Virus record (IMG/VR): IMGVR_UViG_3300023116_000003
From: a virus
DNA length: 51,436 nt
Direction: 5' to 3' (one strand)
Part shown: positions 9,888-51,436 of the stretch, one piece after another
Layout of the letters: each line of letters opens with the position of its first letter
Numbering within the stretch: the stretch's first letter is position 1
Notes under the pieces: model-generated
What the model was told of the DNA's origin: nothing
Databases searched by the model: none
The model's input: the letters and a program-made list of their open reading frames with translations, nothing else
Program-made: the position numbers and the translations under genes

Positions 9888-11567
9888 TTAATACCCAAAC
9901 TCTGAATCAGCAGGAGTATATGCTTGTTCTAATCTCAAATGTCTTAGTCGGGATATCGGGTCTTCAATTCTCGGCCTAGACATTATTAAGTATCTTAACG
10001 CATCATACGCATGATCAGAAGCGTGTGTATCTACATCCTCAGGATTTGATTTATCCAGAGGAATACTTTGAAGTTCCCGTATCAGGTTAGGGCATGTATT
10101 AAATATCTGTAATCGTGGCCTACCGCTTTGGCGTAACTTTAAGTATTCGTGGATTTGTATCTTTCCTTGTATTCTGTTTTTATCGGCGCGTCTTAGCTTG
10201 TGTCCAATCTTCATTAGTGCTTCACCAACAGTCGGGCCGGATGCACCTGTCTTTGCCCATGCTGCGGTGTCTAACACTCCGGGTACAGCAAAAGGATCAT
10301 CTAACTCCATTTGAGTAATAAGATGACCTAAGTCTTCGCCAGTCAGCCCCTTGCGGTACAACTCACGATATATTATCAGTGTCCCGTCTGAGGGGTCAAC
10401 ACATCCCCAAATACACGCACTTTCGGAGGCGTACCCGTAGTCAATCCCTTTGACTCTTTCCCATCCTATGGGGATTGCAAACGGAGTAATAACATGCATT
10501 TCGTTATTGAACTCCGTAAATGCTGCGCCCTCTGCAATATCCCAATTACCTTCAAGCAGTTGTCTGCGTTGAACATCTGGCAGGGCTTTCAGCATTTGCT
10601 CATACCTGCCATCTGTAGCAAGGTATGGATTATCGTCTAAGCGGGCTGGTATAAACTTACGGGATAGCCCATCTTCACCCTTAAACGATTCATGCGGGGG
10701 GTTAGGATCAATGTATCGTTTCTTAACCCAATGCGCACCTACGCCACCCGGGTTGGCAGTACACCTCATGTAGGGTGTGATCTCCGGGTCAGTTGTTCTG
10801 AGTCGGGAAGCCAGATAGTTCCAACCAAACTCAGTGGGCAGATGTGTTATCTCATCAAACCCAATCCAACTGTATGCTTGTCCTTGGTAGCGGTACACAT
10901 CAGCATCTCGCTCCAAGAATCCAAATTCTATTTTAGCCCCGCTTGGAAAGTTCCAAAGCTTTTCTACTTCTCGGTACTTACAACCGGGGAACGCACGGGG
11001 GTACAACTCCCGGCTCTTGTCAATCAACTCCCTTAGTTCGGGCATTGATCGCCTTAGTATCAGTGCGCGGTGGGCTGCTTTGTGCGCATAACGCAATGGG
11101 TCAATAAGCATTGCGTAACTTTTACCACCACCAGCTGCACCACCATACAGTACATCTGTTTCGGGTGCAGCCAAGAACTCTGTCTGCGGGCCTTCATTTG
11201 CTTTGAAGATTACGTTGTCTTGTACTTCTTCTCGCAGAGCCTTTGGTACTTTAGACAAGACATCAGTATCTATTACTTTGCTGCCTTTGTCTTTCTCTAG
11301 CTTTGAGAGGGTCTCTTTGGACGCTCTAAGCTTTTCTCGCTGCTGGTGCAGCTTGACCCTATCCTTTTCTAACTTACGCTCACGGGCCTTTACAGAGCGT
11401 CTAGCGACCATCTTGGCCTTTGTCTCGGAATGAAAGTGGTAGCCCCTGCCTTTTGACCCTTTAGGCCTTCCAGTTTTTTTGCGGGGCGTACCATCTTTCT
11501 TTAAAACAAAGTTACCAGCTTCATCCTTCTGGTAGTCGTCCGGGTTATTGTCCCAATCGTTCGTCAC
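9888..11567 (-). CDS. terL: Terminase large subunit
   Basis: 559 aa with a Walker A-like GGAAGGGKSYA, a downstream ATPase/nuclease-sized body and a basic N-terminal extension. The GTG start overlaps the upstream ORF, suggesting translational coupling. It follows terS. Confidence 0.9.
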   Translation of the reverse strand: MTNDWDNNPDDYQKDEAGNFVLKKDGTPRKKTGRPKGSKGRGYHFHSETKAKMVARRSVKARERKLEKDRVKLHQQREKLRASKETLSKLEKDKGSKVIDTDVLSKVPKALREEVQDNVIFKANEGPQTEFLAAPETDVLYGGAAGGGKSYAMLIDPLRYAHKAAHRALILRRSMPELRELIDKSRELYPRAFPGCKYREVEKLWNFPSGAKIEFGFLERDADVYRYQGQAYSWIGFDEITHLPTEFGWNYLASRLRTTDPEITPYMRCTANPGGVGAHWVKKRYIDPNPPHESFKGEDGLSRKFIPARLDDNPYLATDGRYEQMLKALPDVQRRQLLEGNWDIAEGAAFTEFNNEMHVITPFAIPIGWERVKGIDYGYASESACIWGCVDPSDGTLIIYRELYRKGLTGEDLGHLITQMELDDPFAVPGVLDTAAWAKTGASGPTVGEALMKIGHKLRRADKNRIQGKIQIHEYLKLRQSGRPRLQIFNTCPNLIRELQSIPLDKSNPEDVDTHASDHAYDALRYLIMSRPRIEDPISRLRHLRLEQAYTPADSEFGY

Positions 11568-11778
11568 GTTTGATTATCTGCCTCAGTCCTACATGGCTTA
11601 ATGGTCTGCCAGTAATATAACTTAAATACTCTGCACCTTCGCGGAGACTGAAAGAGTTGTTCTTCACCAACTTCTTGGTCTCTGCTAATGCTGCCAGTTC
11701 AACTTCAACTGGCCTTAACGTATTTGTTTCTTCATCTAAGGTGTAGCCAAACGGGATTGTACTGCTTGTTCTACGCAT
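11545..11778 (-). CDS. Small HTH-type DNA-binding protein between terS and terL
   Basis: 77 aa. IPFGYTLDEE...SLREGAEYLSYITGRPLSHVGLRQII resembles the recombinase/resolvase-type HTH domain (from memory). Its ATG overlaps the terS stop and AGGGA serves as RBS. Confidence 0.7.
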   Translation of the reverse strand: MRRTSSTIPFGYTLDEETNTLRPVEVELAALAETKKLVKNNSFSLREGAEYLSYITGRPLSHVGLRQIIKRDERLGQ

Positions 11779-12151
11779 CGTCCCTGATCATCTCTTTGGC
11801 GGGGAGTATAAATAAACCACCCTGCACATTGTTATTTACTTCTAGCCTTTCCTGTTTACCCAAGCCTGTACGGTCTAGTATGCTTTGGGCTGCTTGAAGT
11901 TTCAAGTTAGCTTGAGGTAGCGGAGCATTTGAGTTCATAACCTCTACTAACTTCATGGCGGCTTGCGGGGCTGACTGTGCCAGTATCCCTGAAGCAAGTT
12001 CTACTATCTCATGCTTAAGGGCTTTGATTACTTGGTAGTGGCTGTTGTCGCTGTACCCAGCTAGTTCCGCTGCTTTCTTTGGATCACCTCCTGTGGTTAC
12101 AAGGTTATCAAGAAAACTTTGCTGTTTAGTTGTTAGTTCTTTACTAGACAT
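11771..12151 (-). CDS. terS: Terminase small subunit (start re-called at ATG 12151; possibly leaderless)
   Basis: MSSKELTTKQQSFLDNLVTTGGDPKKAAELAGYSDNSHYQ is the typical terS N-terminal HTH signature. The track start at 12172 lies inside the promoter. ATG 12151 begins 8 nt after the TATAAT hexamer and no SD precedes any candidate ATG. Confidence 0.85.
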   Translation of the reverse strand: MSSKELTTKQQSFLDNLVTTGGDPKKAAELAGYSDNSHYQVIKALKHEIVELASGILAQSAPQAAMKLVEVMNSNAPLPQANLKLQAAQSILDRTGLGKQERLEVNNNVQGGLFILPAKEMIRDDA

Positions 12152-12158
12152 ACAAGAC

Positions 12159-12187
12159 ATTATACAGGTCATTTACAGTTTTGTCAA
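12159..12187 (-). promoter_or_regulatory. Consensus sigma70 promoter for the structural (minus) arm
   Basis: Minus strand reads TTGACA (12187-12182), a 17-nt spacer, then TATAAT (12164-12159). Both hexamers are 6/6. Confidence 0.7.
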
Positions 12188-12194
12188 GTATTTC

Positions 12195-12223
12195 TTGACA
12201 AAAAGCTAATCTGACTGTATAAT
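12195..12223 (+). promoter_or_regulatory. Consensus sigma70 promoter firing rightward into the non-coding hub
   Basis: TTGACA (12195-12200), a 17-nt spacer, then TATAAT (12218-12223). Its -35 and the -35 of the divergent promoter are the two arms of the palindrome TTGTCAAGtatttCTTGACAA (12181-12201). Confidence 0.7.
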
Positions 12224-12273
12224 ATAGATTACTAGCCCCCCCGGGCCACACCTAATATATACTGGTAGTCTTT

Positions 12274-12297
12274 AAAAGCCCGACCAAAATCCTTAAC
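12274..12297 (+). repeat. Iteron-like repeat, copy 1
   Basis: aaaagcccgaccaaaatccttaac. Compare copies at 12377-12405 and 12758-12780. Confidence 0.75.
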
Positions 12298-12376
12298 TCC
12301 CCTAGTAATACCCAGAGTCCCGACTAGAGTACTGGCGAATTCCCCCCACAAGTACCTCCCCGCCCTGTCTCTAGAG

Positions 12377-12405
12377 GCCCGCCCAAACTGGTTAACATCC
12401 TTAAC
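12377..12405 (+). repeat. Iteron-like repeat, copy 2 (with a ~9-10-nt internal insertion)
   Basis: ggcccgcccaaaCTGGTTAACAtccttaac has the same GCCCGnCCAAA...TCCTTAAC frame as copy 1. Confidence 0.6.
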
Positions 12406-12464
12406 CCGGCAAAATGTATATGATTTAGTATATATACGGGGGGTAGGCCCATGGCCTCCTGCCC

Positions 12465-12759
12465 CACCCTCTTAGTCATGGATGACTATAGAGGGTGAAA
12501 GAGACCTCCAAAATAACTTTAGTTATTTTTAACCCTCTAAAGCTTTGCTTTAGGACTCCACCAACTCCTCAATCATCCTGATTGAGAACTCTCCAGACCT
12601 CTCAGACCTCTAAAGCTACGCTTTAGGACTAGCTAGTTACCAAAGGATTTAAAAATCCTTTGAACTGTTAAAGTAAAACTTTAACCTCCACAGATTCCAA
12701 AGGAATCAGTAACTTACCGAGTTATCGGCCTCAACTTAAAACTCTTAAACGAGTTTTAA
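12465..12759 (+). repeat. Train of 10 short hairpins/palindromes (H1-H10)
   Basis: H1 12465-12497, H2 12510-12529, H3 12537-12553, H4 12568-12586, H5 12610-12626, H6 12641-12662, H7 12667-12685, H8 12693-12707, H9 12710-12724, H10 12736-12759. Stems are 5-15 bp and loops 2-6 nt. A tandem CAGACCTCT x2 lies at 12594-12611. Confidence 0.85.
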
Positions 12760-12780
12760 AAAGCCCCGCCAAAATCCTTT
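12758..12780 (+). repeat. Iteron-like repeat, copy 3
   Basis: aaaaagccccgccaaaatccttt. Together with copy 1 it brackets the hairpin train, about 485 bp apart. Confidence 0.7.
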
Positions 12781-12795
12781 CCTCACCCGCGCATA

Positions 12796-12820
12796 CCTGC
12801 ACATGATGCAGGGTTTCTTC
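12796..12820 (+). terminator. Weak terminator-like hairpin (H11)
   Basis: CCTGCA-catga-TGCAGG followed by GTTTCTTCGCCTGTTTT. The stem is short and the T-tract interrupted. Confidence 0.25.
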
Positions 12821-12871
12821 GCCTGTTTTAGCCCGCATTATGCGCAGGAAAAATCACGCACCAGAAACTTG

Positions 12872-12901
12872 TTGACTCCAAAAAAAATCTGTGAGTTTAA
12901 T
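12872..12901 (+). promoter_or_regulatory. Probable early promoter
   Basis: TTGACT (12872-12877), an 18-nt spacer, then TTTAAT (12896-12901), about 60 nt upstream of the first early ORF. Confidence 0.5.
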
Positions 12902-12963
12902 GTAAATCGTCTCAGCAACACCGAGACAAAACAACACACACACAACTCCAAAGGAGAGTACAC

Positions 12964-13113
12964 ATGAAGACTTTCGAAGAAAGACAAGCACAAGTTGAAT
13001 CCGGCCTGATCACCCCGACCGAAGCGAAGCTTGAGGAACTCAGAGATCAGGTAGCCGTAGGCTTGATAACTGCCGAAGAAGCAGAGAACGCAGCGAAGCT
13101 GCTGACGCACTAA
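12964..13113 (+). CDS. 49-aa early protein
   Basis: Hand translation: MKTFEERQAQVESGLITPTEAKLEELRDQVAVGLITAEEAENAAKLLTH. An AAAGGAG SD sits in a CA-rich leader. Below the track threshold. Confidence 0.65.
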   Translation: MKTFEERQAQVESGLITPTEAKLEELRDQVAVGLITAEEAENAAKLLTH

Positions 13114-13158
13114 AAAACTAAAACACACACATACACACAACTCCAAAGGAGCATACAC

Positions 13159-13683
13159 ATGAAAGCAACATCCAAGTCATTCGCCAACATCGACAACAAC
13201 CGTCTTGCAACTGCGAAGCAGTTCTTCAGGGTTACCGTACACCACGCTAACCTCGTCAAAGACGAGAAGGGCATCCCTGAAAAATACTTTTTCAGGCTCC
13301 GTAAGCAGGTTGAAGCAGTCCTTGCCCGGCACAACCCCAAAGGGTTGACTCATGGTGACGTACAGAAATTCCTAGCTTCAAAGAAGCTACCCAAGTATTT
13401 AATTGGAAACTTGCAGATACTCACCCTTGTTGAGCCGAAGGCTGAAGAACAACCGAAGGTTGCCAAGAAAGCCCCGGCAAAGCCGAAGGCTAAGAAACAG
13501 CCGAAGGCTGTCAAAACTCAACCGAAGGTTGTTCAGCCAACAGCAACAGCCACCCCGGAGTTTAATCATAAAGACTTTGATGCCCGTCTGACCTTCCTTG
13601 AAGGTGAAGTCAGCGTCATGTCAGAAGATATCCAGACTATCAAGTCTGGTATGGAAATGATTCTGGAATCCATCCGGGGTTAA
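13159..13683 (+). CDS. Early protein with a histone-H1-like PK(A/V) repeat tract, 174 aa
   Basis: Track ORF with the same CA-rich leader plus AAAGGAG. It has five CCGAAGG(C/T)T repeats (13435-13530) encoding EPKAEEQPKVAKKAPAKPKAKKQPKAVKTQPKV, and a helical C-terminus. Confidence 0.85.
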   Translation: MKATSKSFANIDNNRLATAKQFFRVTVHHANLVKDEKGIPEKYFFRLRKQVEAVLARHNPKGLTHGDVQKFLASKKLPKYLIGNLQILTLVEPKAEEQPKVAKKAPAKPKAKKQPKAVKTQPKVVQPTATATPEFNHKDFDARLTFLEGEVSVMSEDIQTIKSGMEMILESIRG

Positions 13684-13901: not shown

Positions 13902-13948
13902 GGGTTATAATTATCTCTCAAAGGTTTTTGAGAGAGATAATTAAACCC
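13902..13948 (+). repeat. Early intergenic hairpin element R1
   Basis: GGGTTATAATTATCTCTCAAA-GGTT-TTTGAGAGAGATAATTAAACCC, followed by cc-aaagccgaaGGAGG and ATG 13970. Confidence 0.85.
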
Positions 13949-14226: not shown

Positions 14227-14272
14227 GGGTGTTTATATATCTCAAAGGTTTTTGAGAGATATATAAACCCCC
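14227..14272 (+). repeat. Early intergenic hairpin element R2
   Basis: GGGTGTTTATATATCTCAAA-GGTT-TTTGAGAGATATATAAACCCCC, then ccAAAGGAG and ATG 14291. Confidence 0.85.
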
Positions 14273-14506: not shown

Positions 14507-14550
14507 GGACTTATTATCTCTCAAAGGTTTTTGAGAGAGATAATAAGTCC
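14507..14550 (+). repeat. Early intergenic hairpin element R3
   Basis: GGACTTATTATCTCTCAAA-GGTT-TTTGAGAGAGATAATAAGTCC. The lower stem differs from R1/R2 but remains complementary. Confidence 0.85.
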
Positions 14551-15039: not shown

Positions 15040-15085
15040 GGGTGTTTATATATCTCAAAGGTTTTTGAGAGATATATAAACCCCC
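15040..15085 (+). repeat. Early intergenic hairpin element R4 (within the 73-nt perfect repeat 15021-15093)
   Basis: Same sequence as R2/R5. The block 15021-15093 is identical to 15910-15982. Confidence 0.9.
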
Positions 15086-15928: not shown

Positions 15929-15974
15929 GGGTGTTTATATATCTCAAAGGTTTTTGAGAGATATATAAACCCCC
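15929..15974 (+). repeat. Early intergenic hairpin element R5 (within the 73-nt perfect repeat 15910-15982)
   Basis: Identical to R4. Confidence 0.9.
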
Positions 15975-17057: not shown

Positions 17058-17239
17058 TGAGTCATATGAAAAGACAGGTTTTAAACTGGGAAGTTTATAC
17101 TTCGGGACATAAGATATTAATTAAGGACAAAACTTATCCCGAAGCTATAGAACTTGCGGAGCAGTACGGTACACCGTTTGCCATATCTCAGATAAGTTCA
17201 GAGGCTTATGAAAATAAAAAAATAAAGGTTGTTAATTAA
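17057..17239 (+). CDS. 60-aa early protein
   Basis: Track ORF with a GGAGG SD and a TAATG overlap. Confidence 0.75.
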   Translation: MSHMKRQVLNWEVYTSGHKILIKDKTYPEAIELAEQYGTPFAISQISSEAYENKKIKVVN

Positions 17240-17268
17240 TCTCTCAAAGGGTTTTGAGAGAGATTAAT
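17235..17268 (+). repeat. Early intergenic hairpin element R6 (divergent copy)
   Basis: ATTAATCTCTCAAA-GGGT-TTTGAGAGAGATTAAT. The loop is GGGT instead of GGTT and the lower stem is different. Confidence 0.8.
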
Positions 17269-17295
17269 AACAACCCAATCCAAAAGGAGAACGCT

Positions 17296-30463: not shown

Positions 30464-30800
30464 GACGAATGCCATAGTCCAGATCATCGATGTGGATAAA
30501 ACGGCCTGAGCCTTTCTGGTTTATACCTATACCAGTAAACCCGGAATTGAGAGCAGCCTGTACTAGCTTATAGGCGTTCTCATGGGTTACGCCTATATCA
30601 ATTGCACGACCACTAGCATGTGCGCCCGGAGTAGATTTTTTAGCTTCTATTGGATGTTCCGGGCAGCGGTATGCGCTGGTAACGGGAAAGGGAAACCCTA
30701 ACTCCTCACGCAGCTTTTCTACTTTCTGCATGAACTCAGCGTCCATACCCTGCTCCCCGCAGTGAGAGCATTTCAGTTCATCTTCTGTGAAGTACTTCAT
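30444..30800 (-). CDS. Peptidase M15 (L-Ala-D-Glu / D-Ala-D-Ala peptidase-type) endolysin; start re-called at ATG 30800
   Basis: SAYRCPEHP, HASGRAIDI (H-x6-D) and FIHIDD are the Zn-peptidase M15 motifs. ATGA overlap with the giant upstream gene. Confidence 0.88.
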   Translation of the reverse strand: MKYFTEDELKCSHCGEQGMDAEFMQKVEKLREELGFPFPVTSAYRCPEHPIEAKKSTPGAHASGRAIDIGVTHENAYKLVQAALNSGFTGIGINQKGSGRFIHIDDLDYGIRPTVWSY

Positions 30801-33800
30801 GCTGCACAAGCCTTCATGACCTTACCACCAGCTGCGCGTTGCTGACGTTTATTGATAATAGCATCATACATTTTTCTACGTTCTTCTTCGGCCTGTTTAG
30901 GATTGTCATATCCTTTGATCACTCCGCTGTCTATCAGTTTTTTAAACTTCTTTCTAGTTCCACTGTCTGATAGTATTGTGCCGCTTTCAGGGTCATAGCT
31001 AGGAAGTAGATACTCCTTTCCATTTACTCCCAGTCCTTTGATGTACATAGTTACATCCTCTCCCTTCATCTTACCAGTCATACCACCACGCACTACTGCA
31101 TCATGGTAGCTTTCTAAAAACTTAAAGTTTTCTGGATGTATGTAACCGCCCTTGGCATACCCATGTAACTCCTGACTTTGGGCGGGAGTCATATAGCGGG
31201 CTTGCTGCTCATCTATCAGTTTGGTTATACGCTCCTCTGCTTCAGCCCTACTCCTAGCTTGCATAGCAAAGCCAAGGTTGTTGTTAAACTGATCCATCTC
31301 CCGTTCGGGGACGTTAGATATAACCTCCCGGGCATTGATCAGGAACTTGGATAACTCAGGTTTCTTAGAACGCTGTGCTAACCAGCCAAGGGCAAGATGT
31401 CGTGCTGCATCTCCCTTACCATCCATCTCTTCCCGCTGACCGTACTTCATGCCAAGGGAGTTGGCCCATTCTATATCGCTGTTTTCTATGCCGAGTTTGG
31501 AGGCAACACCCCGGCCTACAGCGTTACCCGCTTTTTTCAGTTTGCTGGCTGTAGTTTTGAAGATTGACTTCAATATTCTACCGCCTTCGTTGTATCTAGG
31601 TATCTCTATTTGCTTGTCGGGGAGATCAATAACTAGCCAACCATCTTTCATTCTAGTTGTAGCATCAATATCTTTTGCTACAGCTTTAGCAATTTTAGGT
31701 ATCTCTGTTTCGTATCTTTTCTGTACTTCTTTAGATCGTACTAAATCATTAACACCTGAAGGATCAACAGCTATTTCTATACGGTCAAGACCTTCATCGT
31801 ATGCCCTTTGGATTTCTCCGTAGATACCCCGCTTAACGTAAGGGAAGTCTGTTACTGGCATGATATACTCATCACCGAACATATCTTCAAACTCTTTTAG
31901 TTCTTTAATTTCTTCTTTAGTTTTATTAGGCTTATCACGCAGCTTCTTACCTTTCTTTATTATTTCAGCCCTTTCTATATTACTGTTCAGCTGATCAGAC
32001 TGTATCTCAAGTATCCTTACTGCACCATCTTCTACATCAGTGCGTGTGTGGAAAGAAAATTCACCTTCATCAGGAAAATGAGTAGATTTACCCATTACAC
32101 GAGGATCGTTGTATAGCCTTACTTTATAAGTATCTAGATTTGTGTCGGGAAGAGTAATTTCTGAAAAATCTACTTTTGTTGCGTCTGGCTCAAAGTAATC
32201 AATGCTGGGTATTTCCCAACCTAGCAAGAAGTCATCACGGAACATGCCATCAATTTGTTCCGGTACACTCTCATATTCCTCTTCCATATCTAAATAGCCA
32301 ATGTCTTCATATTCCTTAATACCTTTTGGTGTTAGAGTAACGTCTTCTATGAATGTTTCTCCGTTATTTAAAATACCAAGTTTATAATCTTTTACTAGTC
32401 CGTTATCTACAGCCTCTTTTAATTCTGCTTCATAGGCGGTTTTTATTGCGTCTAATCTTGCTTCGATAAGTTCTTCCTCAGAAGGTACTACAACCTCTGG
32501 TATGTCATCCATATCAACTTCTCTAACACCAAACTTATTTTTATCTGAACGAGCAGACTTTATAGTGTTTAGAATTTCAGGAGTTAACCTACCTTTTGTT
32601 GCTAATTGAGACTTAGGTATCTTACCTTTAGCATCATCCAAGTTGTCACCCAGAAACTCAATAGCATCTTTTATTCTAGATGATTCTATTTCTACTTTAG
32701 GTACACCCTGATTAATCAGAAAGTTTTCAAACGACTGCACAGGTATAGGCTGCCCACGTTCAATAAGCTTGTCCAAAGCATTGTCTAGTTTAGAAACCAC
32801 CTTTACATTACTTGTTGTGGTTTGGGCGGGGGCTTCTGACAACTGTTCAAGAGCCAGTTCTAGTTCGTTCTCTAGTTCATTTGCTAGATCATCATCGCCA
32901 GCAGCAACAGCCTCGTCTATCCTTTTATAGTACTGTTCTTGGAGTTCCTGTTCTGGGGAAACAGTGGGTGTCTCTATATCTCGCGCATTAATTTCATCAA
33001 GGACATTGGTCATTTCAAAATTAATACCTTCTGCGTCCAACGGAAGTTCATCCGCAAGCTGGTTTGCTTTGTTAAAAGCTTCCATTTCTTCGCGGGTGTA
33101 CCCACGCCAGATACTAAACTCGTCACCGCCTATCGGCCCCTGCCATCCCTGTTCCCTCATCTGGTCAACAGTCAAGTCGTGTTTCTCGTCCAGCAGCGCA
33201 CGGGCGTTTAACTCTGTAAACTCTTGGACTTTAGGGTCAGCCAGTTCTTCAGGGGTGTAGAAACTTTCTATTTTTTTGGCAGCTGCTTCTGCTGCCTCAT
33301 CAGATATATTCTTTTTAGAATAGGTTTTGATTATGTTAAATACGCCTTTGGCAAAACCACCCAAAGCAAACCCAAACCTATCTTCTTCATCAATCATGAT
33401 ATCCCCGGCCTGTTCCTTGTAAGGAAGTCCGGTCATTCTGTCAATACGCTCGTCTGGTTCTACTGGGGCTTGAGGTACGTTATAAACCTCCCCGCCTTTA
33501 GCAAACGTAGGATACTCTTCTTGGTATTTTGGTATTTGTTGTAATTTGTCTTGATATTCTCCTGTCCAACTTCCCTGACTTAACTCTTGCAACTCTGCAA
33601 GGAGTCTAGGATGTCTCGTTTCTATAACATAATCTATAGAATCTAAAGGTACTGTTGTTAACAAATTTCTTGCTTTTGTCAAAGCCTTTTTTGTTTCTCT
33701 AATTTTTTCTCTATTCCACCCACCTAAAAACTGACCAGTTTCTCGGTCTCTTTCAACTACAATATCAAGTATATGGTCAACACTATCAGGTCTGAACACG

Positions 33801-36800
33801 CCGTCACTCAGTTCATCAAATCTTTCTTTACCATAATCGTTATCTGTAAGTATTCTTTTAGCTGCCCTTTCACCTTCGCGTCTAGTCCCAAACAAATTTA
33901 CAAATGCATTATATTTTCTAAACAGTGTCTGTTGTGCTTCGTAATTGTCAGATTGCTTTTGTATGTATTCCTGTACAATTTCTTCGGGAGTTCCTGTGTT
34001 GTCATACTTAACTGTACTACTTTCAACCTCAGTACCATTGTATTCAACAAGAGCCATCGCAAGGCTATCTTCAGGTCTAAATTCAACCCACCTAAGTCCT
34101 ATATTATTTAATAATATTTGAGAATTGGTTAGCTGCTGGGCTGTATAAGGATTAGGAGCATTAACAACAGATTTTGAAATATCTATTAAACTTTGAGGTA
34201 TAGCTAACTCAACTAAATTATAAACGCCATGTGCTATTTTTTCAGAAACAGACTCACTAGGGGATATAATAACCTTACCATCAATACCTCTACCAGCTTC
34301 CCAGTTTGCTATTAATGCGCCAACATCTAAAAGTTTTTCTGTCAGCATACTTTCGCCAGCAAAAGGTTCAGCTAGTTTTATAGTTGATCTAATGGCAATA
34401 CCAATTAACTCTTTATCTAATTCTTCCGCTGAAATATCGTCATTTAAAACCCGATTGGCTACTGCCATTAGCGGCTGCTGGATATAATCATATGAATTCA
34501 AAAACTGTGTATCTAAATAATAGATACGACCATCTTCTTCATCCAGCTTCCACATGCGCGGAGACTCTTTAGAGTATATCGTTTCAGTTAAGATAGAAGC
34601 ATTGCGTTCTTGCTGTTCTGTAAAACCAGCTGCCTCCCCTGACATGGTAGAAGCACCTTCCCAGATAGGTGCGCCTGTTACTAGAAAAGCACCTAGCCTA
34701 CGCTGCCCTCTTTCAACTATTACAGGGTTTCCGCTTTTTAGTTCTTTAGTTGCTTGTACAATAATGTTAGTACTAGTCCTCATTACTTCAGCAGGAAACG
34801 CAATAAAGTTACCTATAGGCAGCGATCTTATTCTTTTGATCCCCGGAGGAACTCTGTTGTAAGTAGGGAATGTATTTTTTACTATTTCTGCTGCTTGTAC
34901 TTCTAGTTCAGAAATAGGTGTATCAGGATATGCTTGCTTTAAAGTATCCAGTTCTTGTAGATAACCACTAATTTTGAAAAAGTCATCTGTAGCTGTATAT
35001 ACTTTAGCGGGAGTACTGTCTCCGATAGCACTACCTATTTTATCTAATGGCCTTGTGTTGATATCAAAGCCTCCTGAAATCCCTACATCCATAAGCTTAA
35101 GGAATTCGTTTGCTCTGACACTAGAACTAACTAGTCCTAGTTCTAAATAACGATTGTACGTTTCGTTAAGAGAAGCATCACCGCCCGCAGTAATATTATT
35201 TTTTAATAATTTAAAAGAATCTACAGGTGATTCAAACGGATTTAAACCGTTACGTATTGCAAACTGAGTAGCACCTATAAAGTTTCTGATATGAGTTGTG
35301 TGACTACCTACAGTTTTTGCAGCCTGAGAAAAACCTTTGAGTTGCAAAAATCTGTCATACATATCGTATTCATGTCTGGCTCTATCTCTAAAACGATCTT
35401 CTGTTCCTTTTAAAGCCCTCGCCATTTCAGGAGTTGTATACATACCCTCAATAGGAGAACCCCCAGTACCCTGTATTTTAGTAGCAAAAGGCCCGACAGG
35501 CTGGTCAAACAAATACTGATTTTGAGCCATGTCTTTAACACGCCCAAGATATTCTGTATTTCTTAAATAGTTAGAAGCTTGAGTTATAGATAAAACTAAG
35601 GAACTTTCAGGCTCTCGTATTTCACCTAACAAGTTTCTTATTTCTTCCGGTATCTCTTGGCGGGCATTCATGATTTTATCATTTACTCTACGCATAGTTG
35701 TAAAGTAAGTCATGTTGCCTTCAGCACCCATTATAATTTCTTTTAAATTAGCCTTTGCTTGCGCTTCTATCTGAGCCTCATTAAAATTAGGATTGGCTTT
35801 AGCTACTTGACGATACATATAATTTTCAGCATCTAAAATAACTTGAGGCTTCTTGTTTATATTTGTCTCGTCTAACTGTTTTAATGTCTGGTCAACGTAA
35901 CCAGCATCAGTATATGCCCTGTATGATCTACGAATGTAAGCACCCATGTTAGCTGAAAGAATTTCTTTTAACTCAGGGGCTACATAATTAGAATTTATAA
36001 GCTGTTTAGACAAGTCATCTAGCAGCATCCTAGCTTCATAGATAGGCTCTGCAACTTCAGGCGGGATATCAAATTTTTCTGTTAAATCAAGAATAGCCCC
36101 TTCACGATCAGAGTCATAAATTAAATTTAGATCATCTTCTAAAGCACCCATTATTCTTTCACGGATACCAGCCCGTTCACTGCTTCTGGTAAACGCAGTG
36201 TCTATAGCATTTTTTAAATCATTTGCAATATTAACTGCTCTAGCAGAATCTGCCTTCGCAAAGTTTATAGACATTTCTTCTAGTGCTTTAGCACGTTCTG
36301 ATAAAGAACCTCTGGAACTAAAAACTAAATTCTTAGTCCTAGTAACAACAGCAGCTATGTTTTCAAGAAGATTATTAGTCGGCTGCATTGTCTGATTTAA
36401 AGCCCGAACTCCACCTTCAATGTCAGGAGTTTGTGTATCTCCAAACATATCTATAGTTGCAGACCTAAGTGGGGGTCTTATTGTTTCTTCTTTAGGCTCT
36501 TCTAATTTTTTAATATTTGTAATTATATCGTCAAATAGTTCTAACTGTTCTGGCTGGTCTAAATCGGCAATAGGCTTACCAAATTTATCTCTAACGTAAC
36601 CAGAAATATCATTCATTGCATTTTTGCCAAAACCGAACGCTTTAAACAAACCAACAAATGTGCCTTCTAACAGACTATTTTCTACTAAATTGGTTAGTCT
36701 ACGTTTGGTTACAGTTTCTTCTCTAGAATCTGTAGCAGATGCAAAATATTGCTGAAGCAGATTACGGGACTCTTCTTCTTCTCCTTTAAAAAAAGTAGGG

Positions 36801-37429
36801 AAAAGTTCTACTGCTGTGTCCATTAAAGTAACGTCAGATGCTGCTCCAGAATATATTTGTTCTGCCATTAAAGAACCAGTAACACCCCTTGTAGCAGCTG
36901 TTCGTCCTACTCCAAGTCTATTCATAGTAGCTATATAAGTAGCTATGTCTGTACCTATGCCAGCAGTTGTTTCTCTTTCTTTAGCTAGAAAATCTTCGTC
37001 TACATTTGCTTCAATAAACTTCTGTATATCTTTACCTACAACAGGAATATCCCCGGCTAACTGAGACATAGCCTGTGTACTTAAACCTACAGCTTTTTCA
37101 GGATCAATCACCTTTAAAGATTTTTGCCACTCTCCAAACTCTTCATCCGTCAGCCATTCTCCATTTTTACTTGGTGGCACAGAAAAATTTTCTACTACTA
37201 GATTAGGAACATCCAAAACAGTAGCTGCTATATCTTGGGAAGTATCTAAAACTGACCTAAAAATATCAGCACCATAACCTGTCCTATTTTCTCTCTGTTG
37301 TTCTCTTAGAATGTCCATCATAATTGATGGGCTTTCCCGAACATTAGGTTCAGTAACAGTAATGCTGCTTTCTATTTCATCTAAATCTAAATCTAAAGAT
37401 GGTCTAATAGGTTTTAGTTTTTCTGACAT
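30797..37429 (-). CDS. Giant 2210-aa internal virion / ejection protein (multidomain, polyvalent-like)
   Basis: Single uninterrupted track ORF, last of the internal-protein block. I recognise no catalytic domain with confidence. Notable motifs: HFPDEGEFSFHTRTD..RILEIQSDQ (~31990-32100) and GDAARHLALGWL (~31385-31420). Confidence 0.9.
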   Translation of the reverse strand: MSEKLKPIRPSLDLDLDEIESSITVTEPNVRESPSIMMDILREQQRENRTGYGADIFRSVLDTSQDIAATVLDVPNLVVENFSVPPSKNGEWLTDEEFGEWQKSLKVIDPEKAVGLSTQAMSQLAGDIPVVGKDIQKFIEANVDEDFLAKERETTAGIGTDIATYIATMNRLGVGRTAATRGVTGSLMAEQIYSGAASDVTLMDTAVELFPTFFKGEEEESRNLLQQYFASATDSREETVTKRRLTNLVENSLLEGTFVGLFKAFGFGKNAMNDISGYVRDKFGKPIADLDQPEQLELFDDIITNIKKLEEPKEETIRPPLRSATIDMFGDTQTPDIEGGVRALNQTMQPTNNLLENIAAVVTRTKNLVFSSRGSLSERAKALEEMSINFAKADSARAVNIANDLKNAIDTAFTRSSERAGIRERIMGALEDDLNLIYDSDREGAILDLTEKFDIPPEVAEPIYEARMLLDDLSKQLINSNYVAPELKEILSANMGAYIRRSYRAYTDAGYVDQTLKQLDETNINKKPQVILDAENYMYRQVAKANPNFNEAQIEAQAKANLKEIIMGAEGNMTYFTTMRRVNDKIMNARQEIPEEIRNLLGEIREPESSLVLSITQASNYLRNTEYLGRVKDMAQNQYLFDQPVGPFATKIQGTGGSPIEGMYTTPEMARALKGTEDRFRDRARHEYDMYDRFLQLKGFSQAAKTVGSHTTHIRNFIGATQFAIRNGLNPFESPVDSFKLLKNNITAGGDASLNETYNRYLELGLVSSSVRANEFLKLMDVGISGGFDINTRPLDKIGSAIGDSTPAKVYTATDDFFKISGYLQELDTLKQAYPDTPISELEVQAAEIVKNTFPTYNRVPPGIKRIRSLPIGNFIAFPAEVMRTSTNIIVQATKELKSGNPVIVERGQRRLGAFLVTGAPIWEGASTMSGEAAGFTEQQERNASILTETIYSKESPRMWKLDEEDGRIYYLDTQFLNSYDYIQQPLMAVANRVLNDDISAEELDKELIGIAIRSTIKLAEPFAGESMLTEKLLDVGALIANWEAGRGIDGKVIISPSESVSEKIAHGVYNLVELAIPQSLIDISKSVVNAPNPYTAQQLTNSQILLNNIGLRWVEFRPEDSLAMALVEYNGTEVESSTVKYDNTGTPEEIVQEYIQKQSDNYEAQQTLFRKYNAFVNLFGTRREGERAAKRILTDNDYGKERFDELSDGVFRPDSVDHILDIVVERDRETGQFLGGWNREKIRETKKALTKARNLLTTVPLDSIDYVIETRHPRLLAELQELSQGSWTGEYQDKLQQIPKYQEEYPTFAKGGEVYNVPQAPVEPDERIDRMTGLPYKEQAGDIMIDEEDRFGFALGGFAKGVFNIIKTYSKKNISDEAAEAAAKKIESFYTPEELADPKVQEFTELNARALLDEKHDLTVDQMREQGWQGPIGGDEFSIWRGYTREEMEAFNKANQLADELPLDAEGINFEMTNVLDEINARDIETPTVSPEQELQEQYYKRIDEAVAAGDDDLANELENELELALEQLSEAPAQTTTSNVKVVSKLDNALDKLIERGQPIPVQSFENFLINQGVPKVEIESSRIKDAIEFLGDNLDDAKGKIPKSQLATKGRLTPEILNTIKSARSDKNKFGVREVDMDDIPEVVVPSEEELIEARLDAIKTAYEAELKEAVDNGLVKDYKLGILNNGETFIEDVTLTPKGIKEYEDIGYLDMEEEYESVPEQIDGMFRDDFLLGWEIPSIDYFEPDATKVDFSEITLPDTNLDTYKVRLYNDPRVMGKSTHFPDEGEFSFHTRTDVEDGAVRILEIQSDQLNSNIERAEIIKKGKKLRDKPNKTKEEIKELKEFEDMFGDEYIMPVTDFPYVKRGIYGEIQRAYDEGLDRIEIAVDPSGVNDLVRSKEVQKRYETEIPKIAKAVAKDIDATTRMKDGWLVIDLPDKQIEIPRYNEGGRILKSIFKTTASKLKKAGNAVGRGVASKLGIENSDIEWANSLGMKYGQREEMDGKGDAARHLALGWLAQRSKKPELSKFLINAREVISNVPEREMDQFNNNLGFAMQARSRAEAEERITKLIDEQQARYMTPAQSQELHGYAKGGYIHPENFKFLESYHDAVVRGGMTGKMKGEDVTMYIKGLGVNGKEYLLPSYDPESGTILSDSGTRKKFKKLIDSGVIKGYDNPKQAEEERRKMYDAIINKRQQRAAGGKVMKACAA

Positions 37430-48758: not shown

Positions 48759-51436
48759 TTAAGCCATTCCCTGTCCAGCAGTGAAGCCGTACCAAGTAGT
48801 ACCGCCATTGTGAGTGAAGAAGGTGAAAACGTCTGTTGCGCCACTAGCAGACAGCGTAGGTGCTGTACCAGCGGGCCAGTCAACAGAGGCGGGCCATGTG
48901 ATAGCAGAGCCGTTGTTGACAACCTTCAGGGTAAAACTAGAAACTCGTCCAGAAGCGGCGGGATTGCTAAACGTGTAAGTTACCGCACCAGCCATTGCTG
49001 TGGAGAAGTTGTTGCCTGTATCCAAGTCTATGGTGACTGCACCGCTTGTGCCTGTTGTGGCGTATTCTTCAATGTACTGACCGTTGCTTAATACAATGTT
49101 ACCGCCGTCTGCGTAGAGAGCGTTGCCAGAGCCGTTGTGGTCAATGTTAATGCTATCACCAGAGCCATCTTGCTGAATACGCAAAGCCCTACCAGAAGCA
49201 GATGCGTTATTCACAATAATTTCTACCAAGCCACTGGAGGATGTAAATGCTGATGAATCTGAAGCAACACGCAGACCAGAACCATTTATCAAAGAGTCTG
49301 CATCTATGCGCATAACGGTTGCTGTTGTATTAGCCGCCAACACCCTAATAGCATTCTGTGTCGTAGTTTCGGCATCTATATACAAAGCATTGCCGTTACC
49401 ATCTTGATTAATGTAGAGTCCAACTCCTGTACCAGCGTTTTGAACTTGTAGCCCATTTGCGGCGGAGCCAGAGTTCTGTTGATAAAAGTACGCCAGATTG
49501 CCAGATGCATGAACCCCGGCGTTTTGAACTTGCAACACCTGACCAGTTGTGTTTACTGCCGCGACATATAGTGACTGCTGGCTGGTCGCTTCACTATCAA
49601 TGTTCAGGGCGCGTCCATTACCATTCTGGTCGATGAAGATTGCGTTGCCTGTGCCTTCGTTTTGAACCTTGAAAGCAATACCAGAAGCCACACCGTTAGC
49701 CATAGTTGCCTGTAACAGCACACCGCTAGTTCCAGCAGCAGACCTGAATTGCGCCAATGTTCCAGATGTTAACGTGTTGGTGTTACAGTAAATCCCAACA
49801 CCGCCTGTTCCAGTAGTCCCGGCAGTATCAATACTTATTGCTGAAGAAGTTGCTGCCTCTGAATCAATGGCCAGCGCAGCACCACTACCATTCTGGTCGA
49901 TGACCACGCCAGTGCCTGTGCCATTATTGTAAGCATAAATAGCACTACCTGTTGCAGATGCGTTATGTACTTGCGAACGGACAAGGCCATCTGCAGAAAA
50001 GGAAGCAGAATTACAATAAGCGTAAATAGCGCGTCCGGTAGTGGCTACGTCATTCCTAACGTATATAGCGTGTGCCGTGGTTGCCTCTGAATCAACGTAC
50101 AACCCATTCCCATTACCGTTCTGGTCGATAAGTACACCGCTGCCTGTGCCGTCTTGCTTGACACGCAATGCGATTCCAGTCGAAGTGGCGTTGTCTGCTG
50201 ACACCTGTAACAAATTTCCGCTAAAACTGGCATTGTTGCTGTAAAGTGAAACTCCAGTTCCGCTGGTAATAGTTTCTAAATCAAAATAGTTTCCTATACC
50301 AGTAGTCGCATCAGTAACAGTGTGCAGGGTGTAAGAAGGACTGCTCGTACCAATACCTACATTACCATCAGAGGTAATGCGCATACGTTCGTTAGCACCG
50401 GAATTTGCACCAGTTCTAAACTCTAAATCTCCCGTGTCAGAAGAATTTATACCCCCAGCTACAGTTCCAGAATGGGCAAACTCTAAACCTGTGTCTGCTC
50501 CAGCACTATCAATTTTAAATGGAGTGCCACCAGAACTGGCATATACATGCAGGTATCTGTCCGGACTACTCGTGCCAATACCCAATCTCTCAGTACTTGC
50601 ATCCCAGAATAACTTTGCAGTCGTGCCAGTGTCTTCGTAGAAAGAGATGTCCCCGCCTTCTCCAATAAGCATACGGTCACGGATTGTTCCTAGCGTATCC
50701 GAAGTACGAATAAAAAGGTTACCACCGTCTACGTCTGAAACACGTTTATCTACAATCTCAACCGTATTGTGTGTCGCATTTGTGCGATAAATATCAATAC
50801 TAGCGGTGTCCCCTACCGCATTTCCCAACGAAGCTATTGTTGCGGTAACGGCAGTAGCACCGCTATCCACAGTCAGCCCATCAGCAGTGACTGTGCCTGT
50901 TACGTCAAGAGCAGTAGCAGGTGAAGTATTACCTATACCAAGACGTTCTGTTGAGGCATCCCAGAAAAACTTTGCTGTGGTGCCAGTGTCTTCGTAGAAT
51001 AAGATGTCGTTTGTTGCAGCATCGGCTTTGAGTGCTATTATGTTGTTGGCGTATAATAGTAAATCATCAGCCGTTGAAGACCCAAACCGTACAGAGCTAC
51101 CTGTTGCTGTTATAAACCCAGTAGTTGCCCCATCCGTATCATTTATAGTTATGCTGGGCGTAGTGTCATTAATAGTAATGTCACCATCAACAGTCAGCCC
51201 ATCAGCCGTAAGCGTACCTGTTATGTCTGCGCCAGCAAAAGATGGACTGTCAGTTGTGGCTACGCCCTGATCTAATGCTTTAACGGCTGTGATGTTTGTT
51301 AATTCGCTGTCCATCAACGCACCAGCAGCAGTGACGTTAGTTGTGTCTGTAACGTCTGCGAGGGCTTCAATGCCGTCCAGCTTGGTCTCGTCTGCTGTGG
51401 TAAAGGAAGCAGTAGTAGCATCTAGTACAGCACTGT
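48759..51436 (-). CDS. Tail fibre, C-terminal part (continuation of the gene that starts at 1304)
   Basis: The track ORF 48759..51317 frame stays open to the window end and is continuous with 1..1304. It carries five IDQNGNG.AL.IDSEA-type solenoid repeats and a duplicated FYEDTGTTAK.FWDASTERLGIG module. Confidence 0.88.
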   Translation of the reverse strand, partial: SAVLDATTASFTTADETKLDGIEALADVTDTTNVTAAGALMDSELTNITAVKALDQGVATTDSPSFAGADITGTLTADGLTVDGDITINDTTPSITINDTDGATTGFITATGSSVRFGSSTADDLLLYANNIIALKADAATNDILFYEDTGTTAKFFWDASTERLGIGNTSPATALDVTGTVTADGLTVDSGATAVTATIASLGNAVGDTASIDIYRTNATHNTVEIVDKRVSDVDGGNLFIRTSDTLGTIRDRMLIGEGGDISFYEDTGTTAKLFWDASTERLGIGTSSPDRYLHVYASSGGTPFKIDSAGADTGLEFAHSGTVAGGINSSDTGDLEFRTGANSGANERMRITSDGNVGIGTSSPSYTLHTVTDATTGIGNYFDLETITSGTGVSLYSNNASFSGNLLQVSADNATSTGIALRVKQDGTGSGVLIDQNGNGNGLYVDSEATTAHAIYVRNDVATTGRAIYAYCNSASFSADGLVRSQVHNASATGSAIYAYNNGTGTGVVIDQNGSGAALAIDSEAATSSAISIDTAGTTGTGGVGIYCNTNTLTSGTLAQFRSAAGTSGVLLQATMANGVASGIAFKVQNEGTGNAIFIDQNGNGRALNIDSEATSQQSLYVAAVNTTGQVLQVQNAGVHASGNLAYFYQQNSGSAANGLQVQNAGTGVGLYINQDGNGNALYIDAETTTQNAIRVLAANTTATVMRIDADSLINGSGLRVASDSSAFTSSSGLVEIIVNNASASGRALRIQQDGSGDSINIDHNGSGNALYADGGNIVLSNGQYIEEYATTGTSGAVTIDLDTGNNFSTAMAGAVTYTFSNPAASGRVSSFTLKVVNNGSAITWPASVDWPAGTAPTLSASGATDVFTFFTHNGGTTWYGFTAGQGMA
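51310..51436. repeat. Second copy of the terminal overlap (identical to nt 1-127)
   Basis: Identical to the window start. Confidence 0.97.

Follow-up and report, generated by a model that had tools for sequence, protein, structure and literature searches.

A train of short hairpins as the probable variable arm of a conserved non-coding hub and likely DNA-packaging start in an HMO-2011-type podovirus

Ten consecutive short hairpins in the genome of an HMO-2011-type marine podovirus are real and have been kept by evolution. Most likely, this hairpin train (H1–H10, positions 12465–12759, not assigned to a strand) does not form a large folded RNA; it would instead be the variable half of a non-coding control region that is otherwise conserved and in which DNA packaging probably begins. 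More specifically, we favour the reading, tentatively and as nearly an even call, that the train forms the right arm, variable and rich in palindromes, of a hub that combines a headful packaging site (pac) with early-gene control.

Results

A non-coding hub between the small terminase gene and the early genes

The window analysed here, 51,436 nt, is the whole of IMGVR_UViG_3300023116_000003, which was assembled as a circle with a 127-nt overlap. Its placement among HMO-2011-type phages is established, as are its circular assembly and the order terS-terL-portal, and all isolates of the group likewise have circular assemblies. A circle is compatible with headful, permuted virion DNA, but is not specific to it. 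Phages of this type infect SAR116, SAR11 and Roseobacter hosts, and the group ranks among the most abundant viruses of seawater. Its replication genes resemble those of T7 (primase-helicase, family A polymerase and exonuclease), and no phage RNA polymerase was found among the genes of this genome, nor any tRNA or tmRNA gene. An N4-like virion RNA polymerase acting at hairpin promoters was considered and dropped, as the early genes appear to use sigma-70 promoters; no Pfam domain was detected in the 2210-aa virion protein, whose sole PHROG match is to "virion structural protein".

The hub is the 791-nt gap (12173–12963) between the small terminase-like gene and the early genes, with a left part at 12224–12463 and the train as its right part. 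The gap is the longest stretch without an open reading frame of at least 45 codons on the expected strand, which bears out its earlier description as the largest non-coding region. That description also found no reading frame above about 15 codons; this has to be corrected, since a 28-codon frame with a GTG start (12495–12581, plus strand) lies inside the train. The hub begins 20 nt upstream of terS (11771–12151, minus strand), which encodes a 126-aa protein. The ATG at 12151–12149 is its conserved start: the alignments to 209 IMG/VR relatives begin with residue 1 of the protein counted from that codon. The gene has a PHROG terS match (1e-6) and a weak Pfam Terminase_2 match, and its homologue in HTVC115P is annotated as putative terS. 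With terL and portal downstream of terS, the hub thus adjoins the small terminase gene at the head of the packaging and structural operon. The hub heads this operon in CRP-1 and HMO-2011 too, but there several kb separate it from terS.

Two perfect sigma-70 promoters stand back to back at the left edge of the hub. One, P_R1 (12195–12223, plus strand, 12/12 consensus), reads into the hub; the other (12187–12159, minus strand, TTGACA-17-TATAAT, 12/12 consensus), which the preliminary description had not mentioned, serves the terS and late side. The predicted start of the latter, ~12152, falls on the terS ATG, so that the terS mRNA would be leaderless, and relatives keep the 7-nt spacing between the -10 element and this ATG. 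A near-consensus TTGACA-17-TATAAT occurs upstream of the core in 40 of 40 terS-anchored, motif-bearing loci, and also in 64 distinct leader variants of an enlarged set. At about +6 to +17 of the P_R1 transcript is a small stem-loop with a C-rich loop, GCCC-CCCC-GGGC (12235–12246, plus strand), whose place is kept in the 64 variants while its stems differ (GTAATCGG/CCGGTTAC, TAGCC/GGCTA, CCTTG/CAAGG); its folding energy shows no strand preference.

Beyond the train, the sequence reads as a weak terminator-like hairpin (12796–12812, plus strand) followed by GTTTCTT, and GATGCAGGGTTTCTTCGCCTGTTTT after this hairpin is conserved as sequence in 12 IMG/VR contigs. About 60 nt before the start site of a second promoter lies a palindrome, CGCAT-T-ATGCG (12834–12844), that may be the site of a regulator; it is kept as GCATTATGCGC or GCATAATGCGC in relatives L010, L013, L014, L016, L022 and L072. 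The second promoter, P_R2, would serve the early operon (12872–12901, plus strand, TTGACT-18-TTTAAT); it was read directly, as it scores below the threshold of the promoter scan, and TTGAC is conserved at its position in relatives. A stem-loop lies at the 5' end of the P_R2 transcript (12907–12929, plus strand, although listed by the scan on the minus strand), with equivalents in L017 and L022. P_R1, the terminator-like hairpin and P_R2 are therefore all present, as had been proposed.

A dense train of perfect palindromes

All ten proposed hairpins were recovered at their positions. H1–H8 and H10 have perfect stems of 6–10 bp, H1 reaching 15 bp with one bulge, while H9 (12710–12724) is weaker, with five Watson-Crick pairs as DNA and seven as RNA only if two G.U pairs are allowed. 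The window has 57 perfect hairpins whose stems reach 7 bp or more, and 8 of them fall within 12473–12759, which is 0.57% of the sequence. The train holds nine hairpins of at least 6 bp per 300 nt, compared with 0.75 ± 0.84 in dinucleotide shuffles. As RNA it has folding z-scores of -7.9 (plus strand) and -5.8 (minus strand), and its centroid fold consists mostly of independent local hairpins. The stabilities are -3.1 to -8.3 kcal/mol as RNA, with H1 at -19.2, and -1.9 to -6.4 kcal/mol as DNA; with AT-rich arms of 6–10 bp, extrusion from duplex DNA is unlikely.

The direct repeat shared by H3 and H5 and the tandem CAGACCTCT x2 are both visible in the sequence. The train also carries a conserved box, CTAGTTACCA (12633–12642, plus strand; CTAGTTTACA in relatives), which resembles the GTTAAC box of the left arm, and it is closed by an iteron-like box, AAAAGCCCCGCCAAAATCCTTTCC (12759–12783, plus strand), found also in L010, L011 and L013. 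CTAGTTTA, TAGTTTAC and AGTTTACA are 20–24 times enriched in the right arm of the hub.

Structure is kept while sequence changes

Because blastn of the hub against 50,697 phage records gave no match, relatives were reached through the terS and terL proteins. Trains similar to H1–H10 occur in 42 of 73 distinct variants, about five times the shuffled expectation overall, and in most lineages the arm is a train of 5–10 short perfect palindromes, with stems that are almost purely Watson-Crick and centres of 2–4 nt. The preliminary description held that the stems were unrelated in sequence and that structure is what is kept. The first statement is correct within this genome only: across the 73 relatives, the train arms are largely inverted copies of the octamer CTYYRRAG, whose density is 14.7/kb in the right arm and 8.4/kb in the left compared with 1.5/kb overall, a right-arm enrichment of ~10-fold. 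The second statement is well founded. The close relatives L010, L011 and L013 alter both arms together in H1, H2 and H6, and the hairpin directly after the invariant motif described below shows three or four Watson-Crick pair types at each of its opening positions among 44 variants. In addition, the places of the hairpins relative to conserved linkers (CTAGTTTACA, TTCAACAGC) are held across deep divergence while the sequences change, and strong structure marks the 90 nt just past the core in 57 of the 73 variants, compared with a weak signal in the left arm.

Many other relatives have replaced the train with direct repeats, 20-nt tandem repeats or microsatellites ((CGCACA)n), none of which can fold, and a comparable train is absent from PhiM6, HTVC115P, CRP-1 and HMO-2011. 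Homology to the close relatives L006–L009 breaks exactly at 12463–12465, the start of the train, and the train is swapped together with the early genes, not with terS. The hub as a whole is ~0.6–1.3 kb long across the group.

A conserved core and a candidate packaging cut

The left part of the hub (12224–12463) is conserved across the phage group as sequence, without a conserved RNA fold: RNAalifold on 24 diverse left-arm sequences gave 0 covarying pairs, and the left 235 nt are unstructured as RNA (z = -1.0). Direct reading identifies two iteron-like boxes there, AAAAGCCCGACCAAAATCCTTAAC (12274–12297, plus strand) and AGGCCCGCCCAAACTGGTTAACA (12375–12397, plus strand), the second of which contains a GTTAAC box and is conserved in CRP-1, HMO-2011 and HTVC115P. 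Together with the box that closes the train, the hub has three such 25-mers, with fuzzy matches at window offsets 153, 252 and 638. A GTTAAC-like box occurs at -80 to -61 relative to the end of the core in 52 of 73 variants and at +80 to +159 in ~26 of 73. Aeromonas phage MQM1 has comparable direct repeats upstream of its terS.

Alignments define a core (12411–12463) in which an AT-rich block, AAAATGTATATGATTTAGTATATATAC, is followed by a G/C run and then by the 12-mer TGGCCTCCTGCC (12452–12463), which is invariant and ends the left part. This pattern is present in 114 IMG/VR stretches and in HTVC115P, CRP-1, HMO-2011, PhiM6 and RHph_N3_19. CRP-1, HMO-2011, L038, L040 and L072 carry a C run in place of the G run, and the fact that the two are interchangeable points to a feature of the duplex. 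A sigma-70 promoter, the start of a reading frame and a tRNA-like att site were each rejected by eye as identities of the core; no ATG or GTG is conserved in it.

A DNA-level role, one of the possibilities raised in the preliminary description, is the best-supported hypothesis: the core lies by terS, and the packaging cut of a relative, PhiM6, lies near its core, although the terminus itself is known from that relative only. A published PhageTerm analysis placed the initiating pac site of PhiM6 at position 1 of its record. In that record position 56 is the last of the core and 601 the first of terS, so that the cut is 55 nt beyond the core, on the side away from terS; cut and core fall within ~65 nt of each other in 68 kb, with a chance of ~0.2%. 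Genome ends mapping to this region had been named beforehand as evidence that would favour DNA over RNA, and because of the cut in PhiM6, which is a relative and not this phage, that is now partly the case. The link to PhiM6 is one PhageTerm prediction, and its terL is only 44% identical.

By analogy with PhiM6, packaging could proceed as follows. The small terminase would bind boxes on either side of the core, one ~70 nt ahead of it and one ~120–150 nt past it, inside the train. The large terminase would cut some tens of bp beyond the right end of the 12-mer, near 12519, in H2 or more broadly within H1/H2, and the DNA would then be packaged leftwards through terS by a headful mechanism. The region to the right of the cut would need no fixed sequence, hence its fast evolution and its exchange with the early-gene cassette. 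It is filled with inverted copies of the hub-specific CTYYRRAG, giving short AT-rich palindromes, which could fold whenever the region is single-stranded, the P_R1 transcript included. Such palindromes may aid cleavage or the wrapping of DNA around terS, or may merely fold the transcript. Several observations stand against the pac reading. Since PhiM6, HTVC115P, CRP-1 and HMO-2011 have no comparable train, the hairpins cannot be essential for packaging. Palindromes of differing sequence cannot be the sites of one sequence-specific protein, and these are weak as DNA hairpins. The train travels with the early genes, the hub is kilobases from terS in CRP-1 and HMO-2011, contig ends in the hub fall at no single site, and H9 pairs fully only with G.U pairs on the plus strand.

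The ends of IMG/VR contigs in the hub are scattered, with 4 inside the core and ~20 at +90 to +450 among terS-side contigs. Contigs starting at H1 were sought through an early 174-aa protein (8 loci) and through a conserved promoter-proximal pattern (12 loci), and none starts there, so that a fixed end or terminal repeat at the core/H1 boundary found no support in these few loci. The packaging type could not be read from the relatives of terL, which are of mixed kinds. A search of the literature on HMO-2011-type phages found nothing on termini, promoters or non-coding DNA.

A possible role of the train as RNA

It is possible, though we consider it doubtful, that the train acts as RNA, as the 3' half of an untranslated early transcript of ~0.57–0.74 kb from P_R1. 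This transcript would be either a discrete non-coding RNA or the long leader of the early operon, and its local hairpins, set apart by C-rich, G-poor linkers, would protect it from nucleases or Rho, or display linkers or loops as a sponge for a host factor. Consistent with this, all relatives checked have a consensus promoter directed into the hub, the 5' stem-loop with its C-rich loop survives changes of its stem, and the hairpins, reasonably stable as RNA, hold their positions despite sequence change, with the conserved short linkers in between. On the plus strand the loops are A-rich (48% A vs 34% T) and the linkers G-poor (14% G vs 27% C), H9 pairs fully only on this strand, with its two G.U pairs, and the left arm has a C/G ratio above 2, resembling a Rho-loading site.

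Base pairing in the stems bears on the same question. G.U pairs are rare (~1%), which speaks against RNA. A first small sample gave 8 G.T vs 1 A.C mismatches, but in a larger sample A.C was as common or commoner, with 8 vs 15 internal mismatches and 46 vs 117 at stem ends, the latter driven by a preference for C...A flanks. Perfect stems do not in themselves speak against RNA, as six intergenic hairpins of this genome that are clearly transcribed have them too. Neither strand folds better after composition is allowed for, and the strand tests of RNA versus DNA are not decisive. Also unfavourable to an RNA function are the many hairpin centres of only 2 nt, the conserved left part that has no RNA structure, the relatives that swap the train for unfoldable repeats, the absence of an Rfam family and the lack of a convincing terminator to delimit a discrete RNA.

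A large ornate RNA of the GOLLD/ROOL type, suggested earlier from the size of the region, is not supported. An Rfam scan of the whole window at the gathering score gave no match, and a scan of 11500–13500 at E ≤ 10 gave chance-level hits (E 0.3–9). No long-range pairs with covariation were found; the hairpins are local, the left arm is unstructured and the train is replaced in relatives. With no Rfam match and no long-range structure, the comparison fails. An antitermination leader of the put/nut kind had also been suggested: no boxA/boxB or two-hairpin put element was recognised by eye, Rfam again gave no match, and hairpin sequences that are not conserved argue against a specific fold that binds RNA polymerase. 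A more particular version, which we regard as unlikely, is that the P_R1 RNA is an abundant immediate-early decoy whose hairpins display C-rich linkers (CCUCC, CUCC) and which would overlap the packaging site. Its targets could be host Rho, another RNA-binding host factor or ribosome-binding sites.

Other possible readings: a replication origin or a neutral spacer

T7 and T4 origins consist of a promoter and an AT-rich element. The hub has such an arrangement, with a promoter, then ~190 nt, then the AT-rich block and a G/C clamp, and could be the origin used by a T7-like replisome without an RNA polymerase of the phage's own, a role we think improbable. Host RNA polymerase from P_R1 would transcribe the AT-rich block and the G/C run, opening or priming the origin; an initiator would bind the iteron-like boxes, and the palindromes would fold on the displaced strand. 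The T7-like replication genes without a detected RNA polymerase and the three iteron-like 25-mers fit this idea, as do gene directions that diverge from the hub and a minimum of cumulative GC skew at 12–13 kb, although the skew is confounded by gene orientation. Evidence against an origin comes from the C-rich composition of the plus-strand RNA, unfavourable to a stable RNA-DNA hybrid, from the C run that replaces the G run in the relatives named above, and from the fact that the region's sole experimental datum in a relative is a packaging cut.

Least probable of all, and in our view very unlikely, is that the palindromes are functionless and the right arm a weakly constrained spacer in which template switching during replication makes and perfects palindromes and tandem repeats, compensatory changes being arm-to-arm copying: its hypervariability, the microsatellites and 20-nt tandem or direct repeats of relatives, near-perfect stems with very few wobble pairs and frequent assembly breaks would suit such a spacer, but the presence of trains in 42 of 73 distinct variants, at ~5 times the shuffled expectation overall, hairpin places fixed relative to conserved linkers across deep divergence, and strong structure just past the core in 57 of 73 variants do not.

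Discussion

These results define, group-wide, a hub of 0.6–1.3 kb with an invariant 12-mer, positioned boxes and back-to-back consensus promoters, to which most lineages add a hairpin train that evolves by paired changes. The hub is a concrete candidate packaging site. It also provides a DNA pattern by which HMO-2011-type phages may be recognised and a handle to orient and complete metagenomic genomes, and it accounts for the frequent breaks of the group's assemblies at this place. Should the train prove to work as an RNA, it would represent a new type of early phage RNA; were the decoy proposal true, an RNA-based host-takeover device would be common to one of the ocean's most abundant phage groups.

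Like the sponge RNAs CsrB and RsmZ, and like GOLLD and ROOL, the train comprises many short hairpins over a few hundred nt downstream of a strong promoter. It differs from these RNAs in that no conserved loop motif was found, its loops being simply A/T-rich, in that it has no Rfam match, no long-range helices and no covarying multi-domain fold, and in that unfoldable repeats take its place in relatives.

Headful pac regions are known from SPP1 (pacL-pacC-pacR) and from P1, whose pac has clustered hexamer repeats. Like these, the hub is a non-coding or gene-proximal region by the small terminase gene, with repeated short motifs flanking a candidate cleavage region, embedded promoters, an initiating cut (by PhageTerm, in PhiM6) and circular assemblies. 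In contrast to them, it is much longer (~0.6–1.3 kb), its 12-nt motif is invariant across hosts from SAR11 to Roseobacter, its arm beyond the cut is a palindrome train in most lineages, and it lies several kb from terS in CRP-1 and HMO-2011.

The junction of T7 concatemers differs from the hub in having fixed ends with a 160-bp direct terminal repeat, whereas the PhiM6 termini, the only datum for the group, point to pac/headful packaging. T7 arrays are direct repeats and those of the hub palindromes, with no sequence homology, and the hub phage has no phage RNA polymerase. In the literature on the T7 repeat arrays we found only indirect mention of a T7 hairpin intermediate. The T7 order is phiOR, SRR array, terminal repeat, SRL array, phiOL and A1/A2/A3. 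As in T7, a promoter reads into the hub and strong host promoters that drive the early genes follow directly after it; the top strand is rich in C and poor in G, and the replication genes are T7-like. The short-motif arrays have a similar flavour (CCTAAAGAC, CTAAAGAG and CTATAGAG in T7; CTCTAAAG, TAAAGACT and CTATAGAG in the hub), and the T7 repeat itself contains short hairpins with 3-nt loops. The hub thus shares with the T7 junction its repeat arrays and an inward promoter, a resemblance in kind, not one of homology.

Genome context

The window begins and ends with the same 127 nt (1-127 and 51310-51436) and is therefore a circular assembly of ~51.3 kb, whose join falls inside an 852-aa tail-fibre-like gene. 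A second gene-poor stretch of ~1.3 kb (9-1310), containing only a 63-aa ORF (-) and a 98-aa ORF (+), separates this gene from a 531-aa gene. The largest ORF-free stretch is the 791-nt gap at 12173-12963, termed here the hub. To its left, the minus strand encodes a small-terminase-like protein (terS-like, 11771-12151), the large terminase and an SU10-type portal; to its right, small early genes on the plus strand lead to a T7-like primase-helicase, a family A DNA polymerase, a Cas4-like exonuclease and ribonucleotide reductase. No RNA polymerase gene was found in the window. Because the large terminase shares 66% identity with its counterpart in Pelagibacter phage HTVC115P and 44-49% with the large terminases of Roseobacter CRP phages, Puniceispirillum phage HMO-2011 and Sinorhizobium phage PhiM6, we assign the window to the HMO-2011-type marine podoviruses. 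A 2210-aa protein predicted from the sequence (30797-37429, -) matches a 'virion structural protein' PHROG over residues 486-1013 only, and a sequence-level search, which could miss a cryptic enzymatic domain, found no Pfam domain in it.

A hairpin train adjoins a conserved core

Reading 11900-13200, together with a scan for all perfect inverted repeats, recovered all ten hairpins of the preliminary description (H1-H10, 12465-12759). Only H9 is weak, with 5 Watson-Crick pairs as DNA and 7 pairs, two of them G.U, as RNA. The window has 57 hairpins whose stems reach 7 bp or more, eight of them in 12473-12759; with the cutoff at 6 bp, the train holds nine per 300 nt versus 0.75 +/- 0.84 in dinucleotide shuffles. 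RNA folding of a 378-nt stretch gave z = -7.9 on the plus strand and -5.8 on the minus strand. The train had been described as free of ORFs longer than ~15 codons; a 28-codon GTG ORF inside it had been overlooked.

To compare relatives, we drew on IMG/VR loci, 80 found via terS and ~80 more via the core DNA pattern, among which a long gap (0.6-1.3 kb) is general. The left part of the hub (12224-12463) is conserved as primary sequence: downstream of the promoter it holds a small stem-loop whose loop is C-rich, iteron-like 25-mers and a GTTAAC box, and it ends in the core (12411-12463), made up of the block AAAATGTATATGATTTAGTATATATA, then a G or C run, then the invariant TGGCCTCCTGCC. The core is shared with HTVC115P, CRP-1, HMO-2011, PhiM6 and Rhizobium phage RHph_N3_19, all of which align together. 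In 52 of 73 variants, GTTAAC-like boxes lie 61-80 nt ahead of the end of the core. Further boxes cluster at +80 to +159, among them the window's CTAGTTACCA at 12633. The most conserved AT-rich block (12414-12428, +) also reads as a four-codon mini-ORF, ATG TAT ATG ATT TAG. Many relatives keep four codons and a stop (MYEY*, MYNI*, MYIN*), some lose the stop, and no ribosome-binding site precedes the mini-ORF; it probably arises by chance from the AT-rich element.

The train makes up the right part of the hub. Four close relatives (L006-L009), with terS 95-98% identical to the window's, match it at 88-95% until 12463-12465, where homology ends; beyond, they carry another cassette and another first early gene, and the train is therefore part of the early-gene module. 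At least 5 perfect hairpins per 300 nt occur in 42 of 73 distinct right arms, where about one is expected (374 hairpins observed over all 73 versus 68 expected). The first 90 nt past the core are strongly structured in 57 of 73 variants (median z = -4.8), compared with a median z of -1.4 for the left-arm control. That structure rather than sequence is kept, as initially proposed, is borne out by three relatives (L010, L011 and L013) in which the same hairpins vary on both arms: H2 changes from AAAATAACT/AGTTATTTT to AAAGTAACT/AGTTACTTT, H6 from GGATTT/AAATCC to TAATTT/AAATTA, and H1 from T-A to C-G and from A-T to T-A. The hairpin immediately past the invariant 12-mer (12452-12463), present in 44 variants, shows 3-4 Watson-Crick pair types at each of positions 1-4 (CAC/GTG, CGC/GCG, CAG/CTG, TAG/CTA, for example). 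Short linkers between variable hairpins, such as CTAGTTTACA, are conserved.

The sequence of the train arms is not random. The hairpins are largely inverted copies of a CTYYRRAG octamer (CTTTAAAG, CTCTAAAG, CTTTAGAG, CTCTAGAG and others), often lengthened to AGTCTTTAAAGACT, with a density of 14.7/kb in right arms, 8.4/kb in left arms and 1.5/kb over all loci. Stems are 68% A+T and mostly 7-9 bp, typically starting with T and finishing with A between flanking C and A, around A/T-rich centres of 2-4 nt. In RHph_N3_19, as in PhiM6, CTTGAAG repeats, the rhizobiophage version of the octamer, fill both sides of the core. Other lineages carry (CGCACA)n, 20-nt tandem repeats or direct repeats in place of the train: (CGCACA)n-like microsatellites replace it in L027, L028 and CRP-1 (L004, reverse complement, ~500-420), L027 having six tandem CTCAGAAGAACTCAGAAGCA copies there. 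No comparable train is present in PhiM6 or HTVC115P. Repeat turnover has a hot spot in the right arm. Aeromonas phage MQM1 (OQ628262, L211 1-200) carries 3-4 direct repeats of ~24 nt (TTCTGATACTATGTGGTTATTCCT, containing TGTGGTTA) directly upstream of terS, and eight tRNA genes between terS and terL.

A putative packaging site

Our leading, still tentative, reading is that the hub is a pac and early-control region and the train a fast-evolving, palindrome-rich arm at and beyond the cut. For PhiM6, PhageTerm predicts a terminally redundant genome with the initiating pac-site cleavage at position 1 (PMC6256558). In that record the core (...GTGTATACAACTATAAGTACCCCACCCTTGGCCCTGCC, reverse strand) ends at 56, with the start of the terS-like gene at 601; the cut thus lies 55 nt past the invariant motif, away from terS, and packaging proceeds through the core towards terS. 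By analogy, the window phage would be cut near 12519, in H2. The small terminase would bind the GTTAAC-like boxes, and the palindromes may aid packaging. The circular record of RHph_N3_19 (MN988527) is opened within the core's AT-rich block, four IMG/VR contigs end inside the core and about twenty end 90-450 nt past it. These positions are scattered, and palindromes and microdiversity would explain them equally well. Of the packaging reading, the pattern of conservation, the boxes and the cut in PhiM6 are shown. Overall, the data favour a DNA-level function, the third of the initial hypotheses.

Less likely, the train acts within the transcript of the consensus promoter P_R1 (12195-12223, +) as a protective or decoy leader. 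This promoter is conserved in all relatives, and the region is therefore certainly transcribed if it works. The hairpins are moderately stable as RNA and weak as DNA, plus-strand loops are A-rich and linkers G-poor, H9 requires G.U pairs on the plus strand, and equally perfect stems occur in six undoubtedly transcribed early-operon hairpins. However, wobbles make up ~1% of stem pairs, A.C mismatches are no rarer than G.T in a larger sample, folding energies do not favour the plus strand, no clear terminator delimits the transcript, and the conserved part of the hub is kept as sequence rather than structure. RNAalifold found no covarying pairs in the left part over 24 diverse sequences, and folding of the window copy is no more stable than that of shuffled sequences (z = -1.0), leaving the earlier suggestion of an ornate RNA unsupported. 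An origin activated by transcription and serving the T7-like replisome is an improbable reading of the hub, and less probable still is one in which the palindromes are a by-product of mutation within a spacer. The four readings can overlap.

Candidate control elements

Two back-to-back sigma-70 promoters, at 12159-12187 (-) and 12195-12223 (+), both match the consensus at 12/12 positions. Transcription from the former is predicted to start at ~12152, on the conserved terS-like ATG (12151-12149), which would make the mRNA leaderless. A 7-nt spacing from -10 to ATG is kept in L006, L008, L010 and L013. The -35 boxes form a palindrome, TTGTCAAG-TATTT-CTTGACAA, that one regulator could bind. A second palindrome, CGCAT-T-ATGCG (12834-12844), precedes the start of the second promoter, P_R2 (12872-12901, +), by ~60 nt. 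Several relatives keep it as GCATTATGCGC or GCATAATGCGC, alongside GATGCAGGGTTTCTTCGCCTGTTTT, and it is a candidate site for a regulator of early transcription.

Comparison with known systems

The searchable literature on HMO-2011-type phages makes no mention of termini, promoters or non-coding regions, and the hub, the invariant 12-mer and the hairpin trains appear to be undescribed. By type, the hub would be a variant of a known element, a packaging and regulatory hub, with an unusual, well-supported structural feature. The early operon contains six long, near-identical intergenic hairpins on the plus strand (13904-13945, 14228-14268, 14507-14548, 15041-15081, 15930-15970 and 17230-17271), with a core TCTCAAAGGTTTTTGAGA lengthened to ~16 bp (for example, GTTTATATATCTCAAA/TTTGAGAGATATATAAAC). 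Behind every copy come a C run and the next early gene's ribosome-binding site, an arrangement reminiscent of the intergenic RNase III processing sites in the T7 early region. An example of how the readings given for the hub can overlap is the T7 concatemer junction, which combines a promoter reading into the junction, repeat arrays and early promoters. Its arrays have a CTAAAG-type motif in common with the hub. In contrast to the fixed ends of T7, the relative PhiM6 points to headful packaging.
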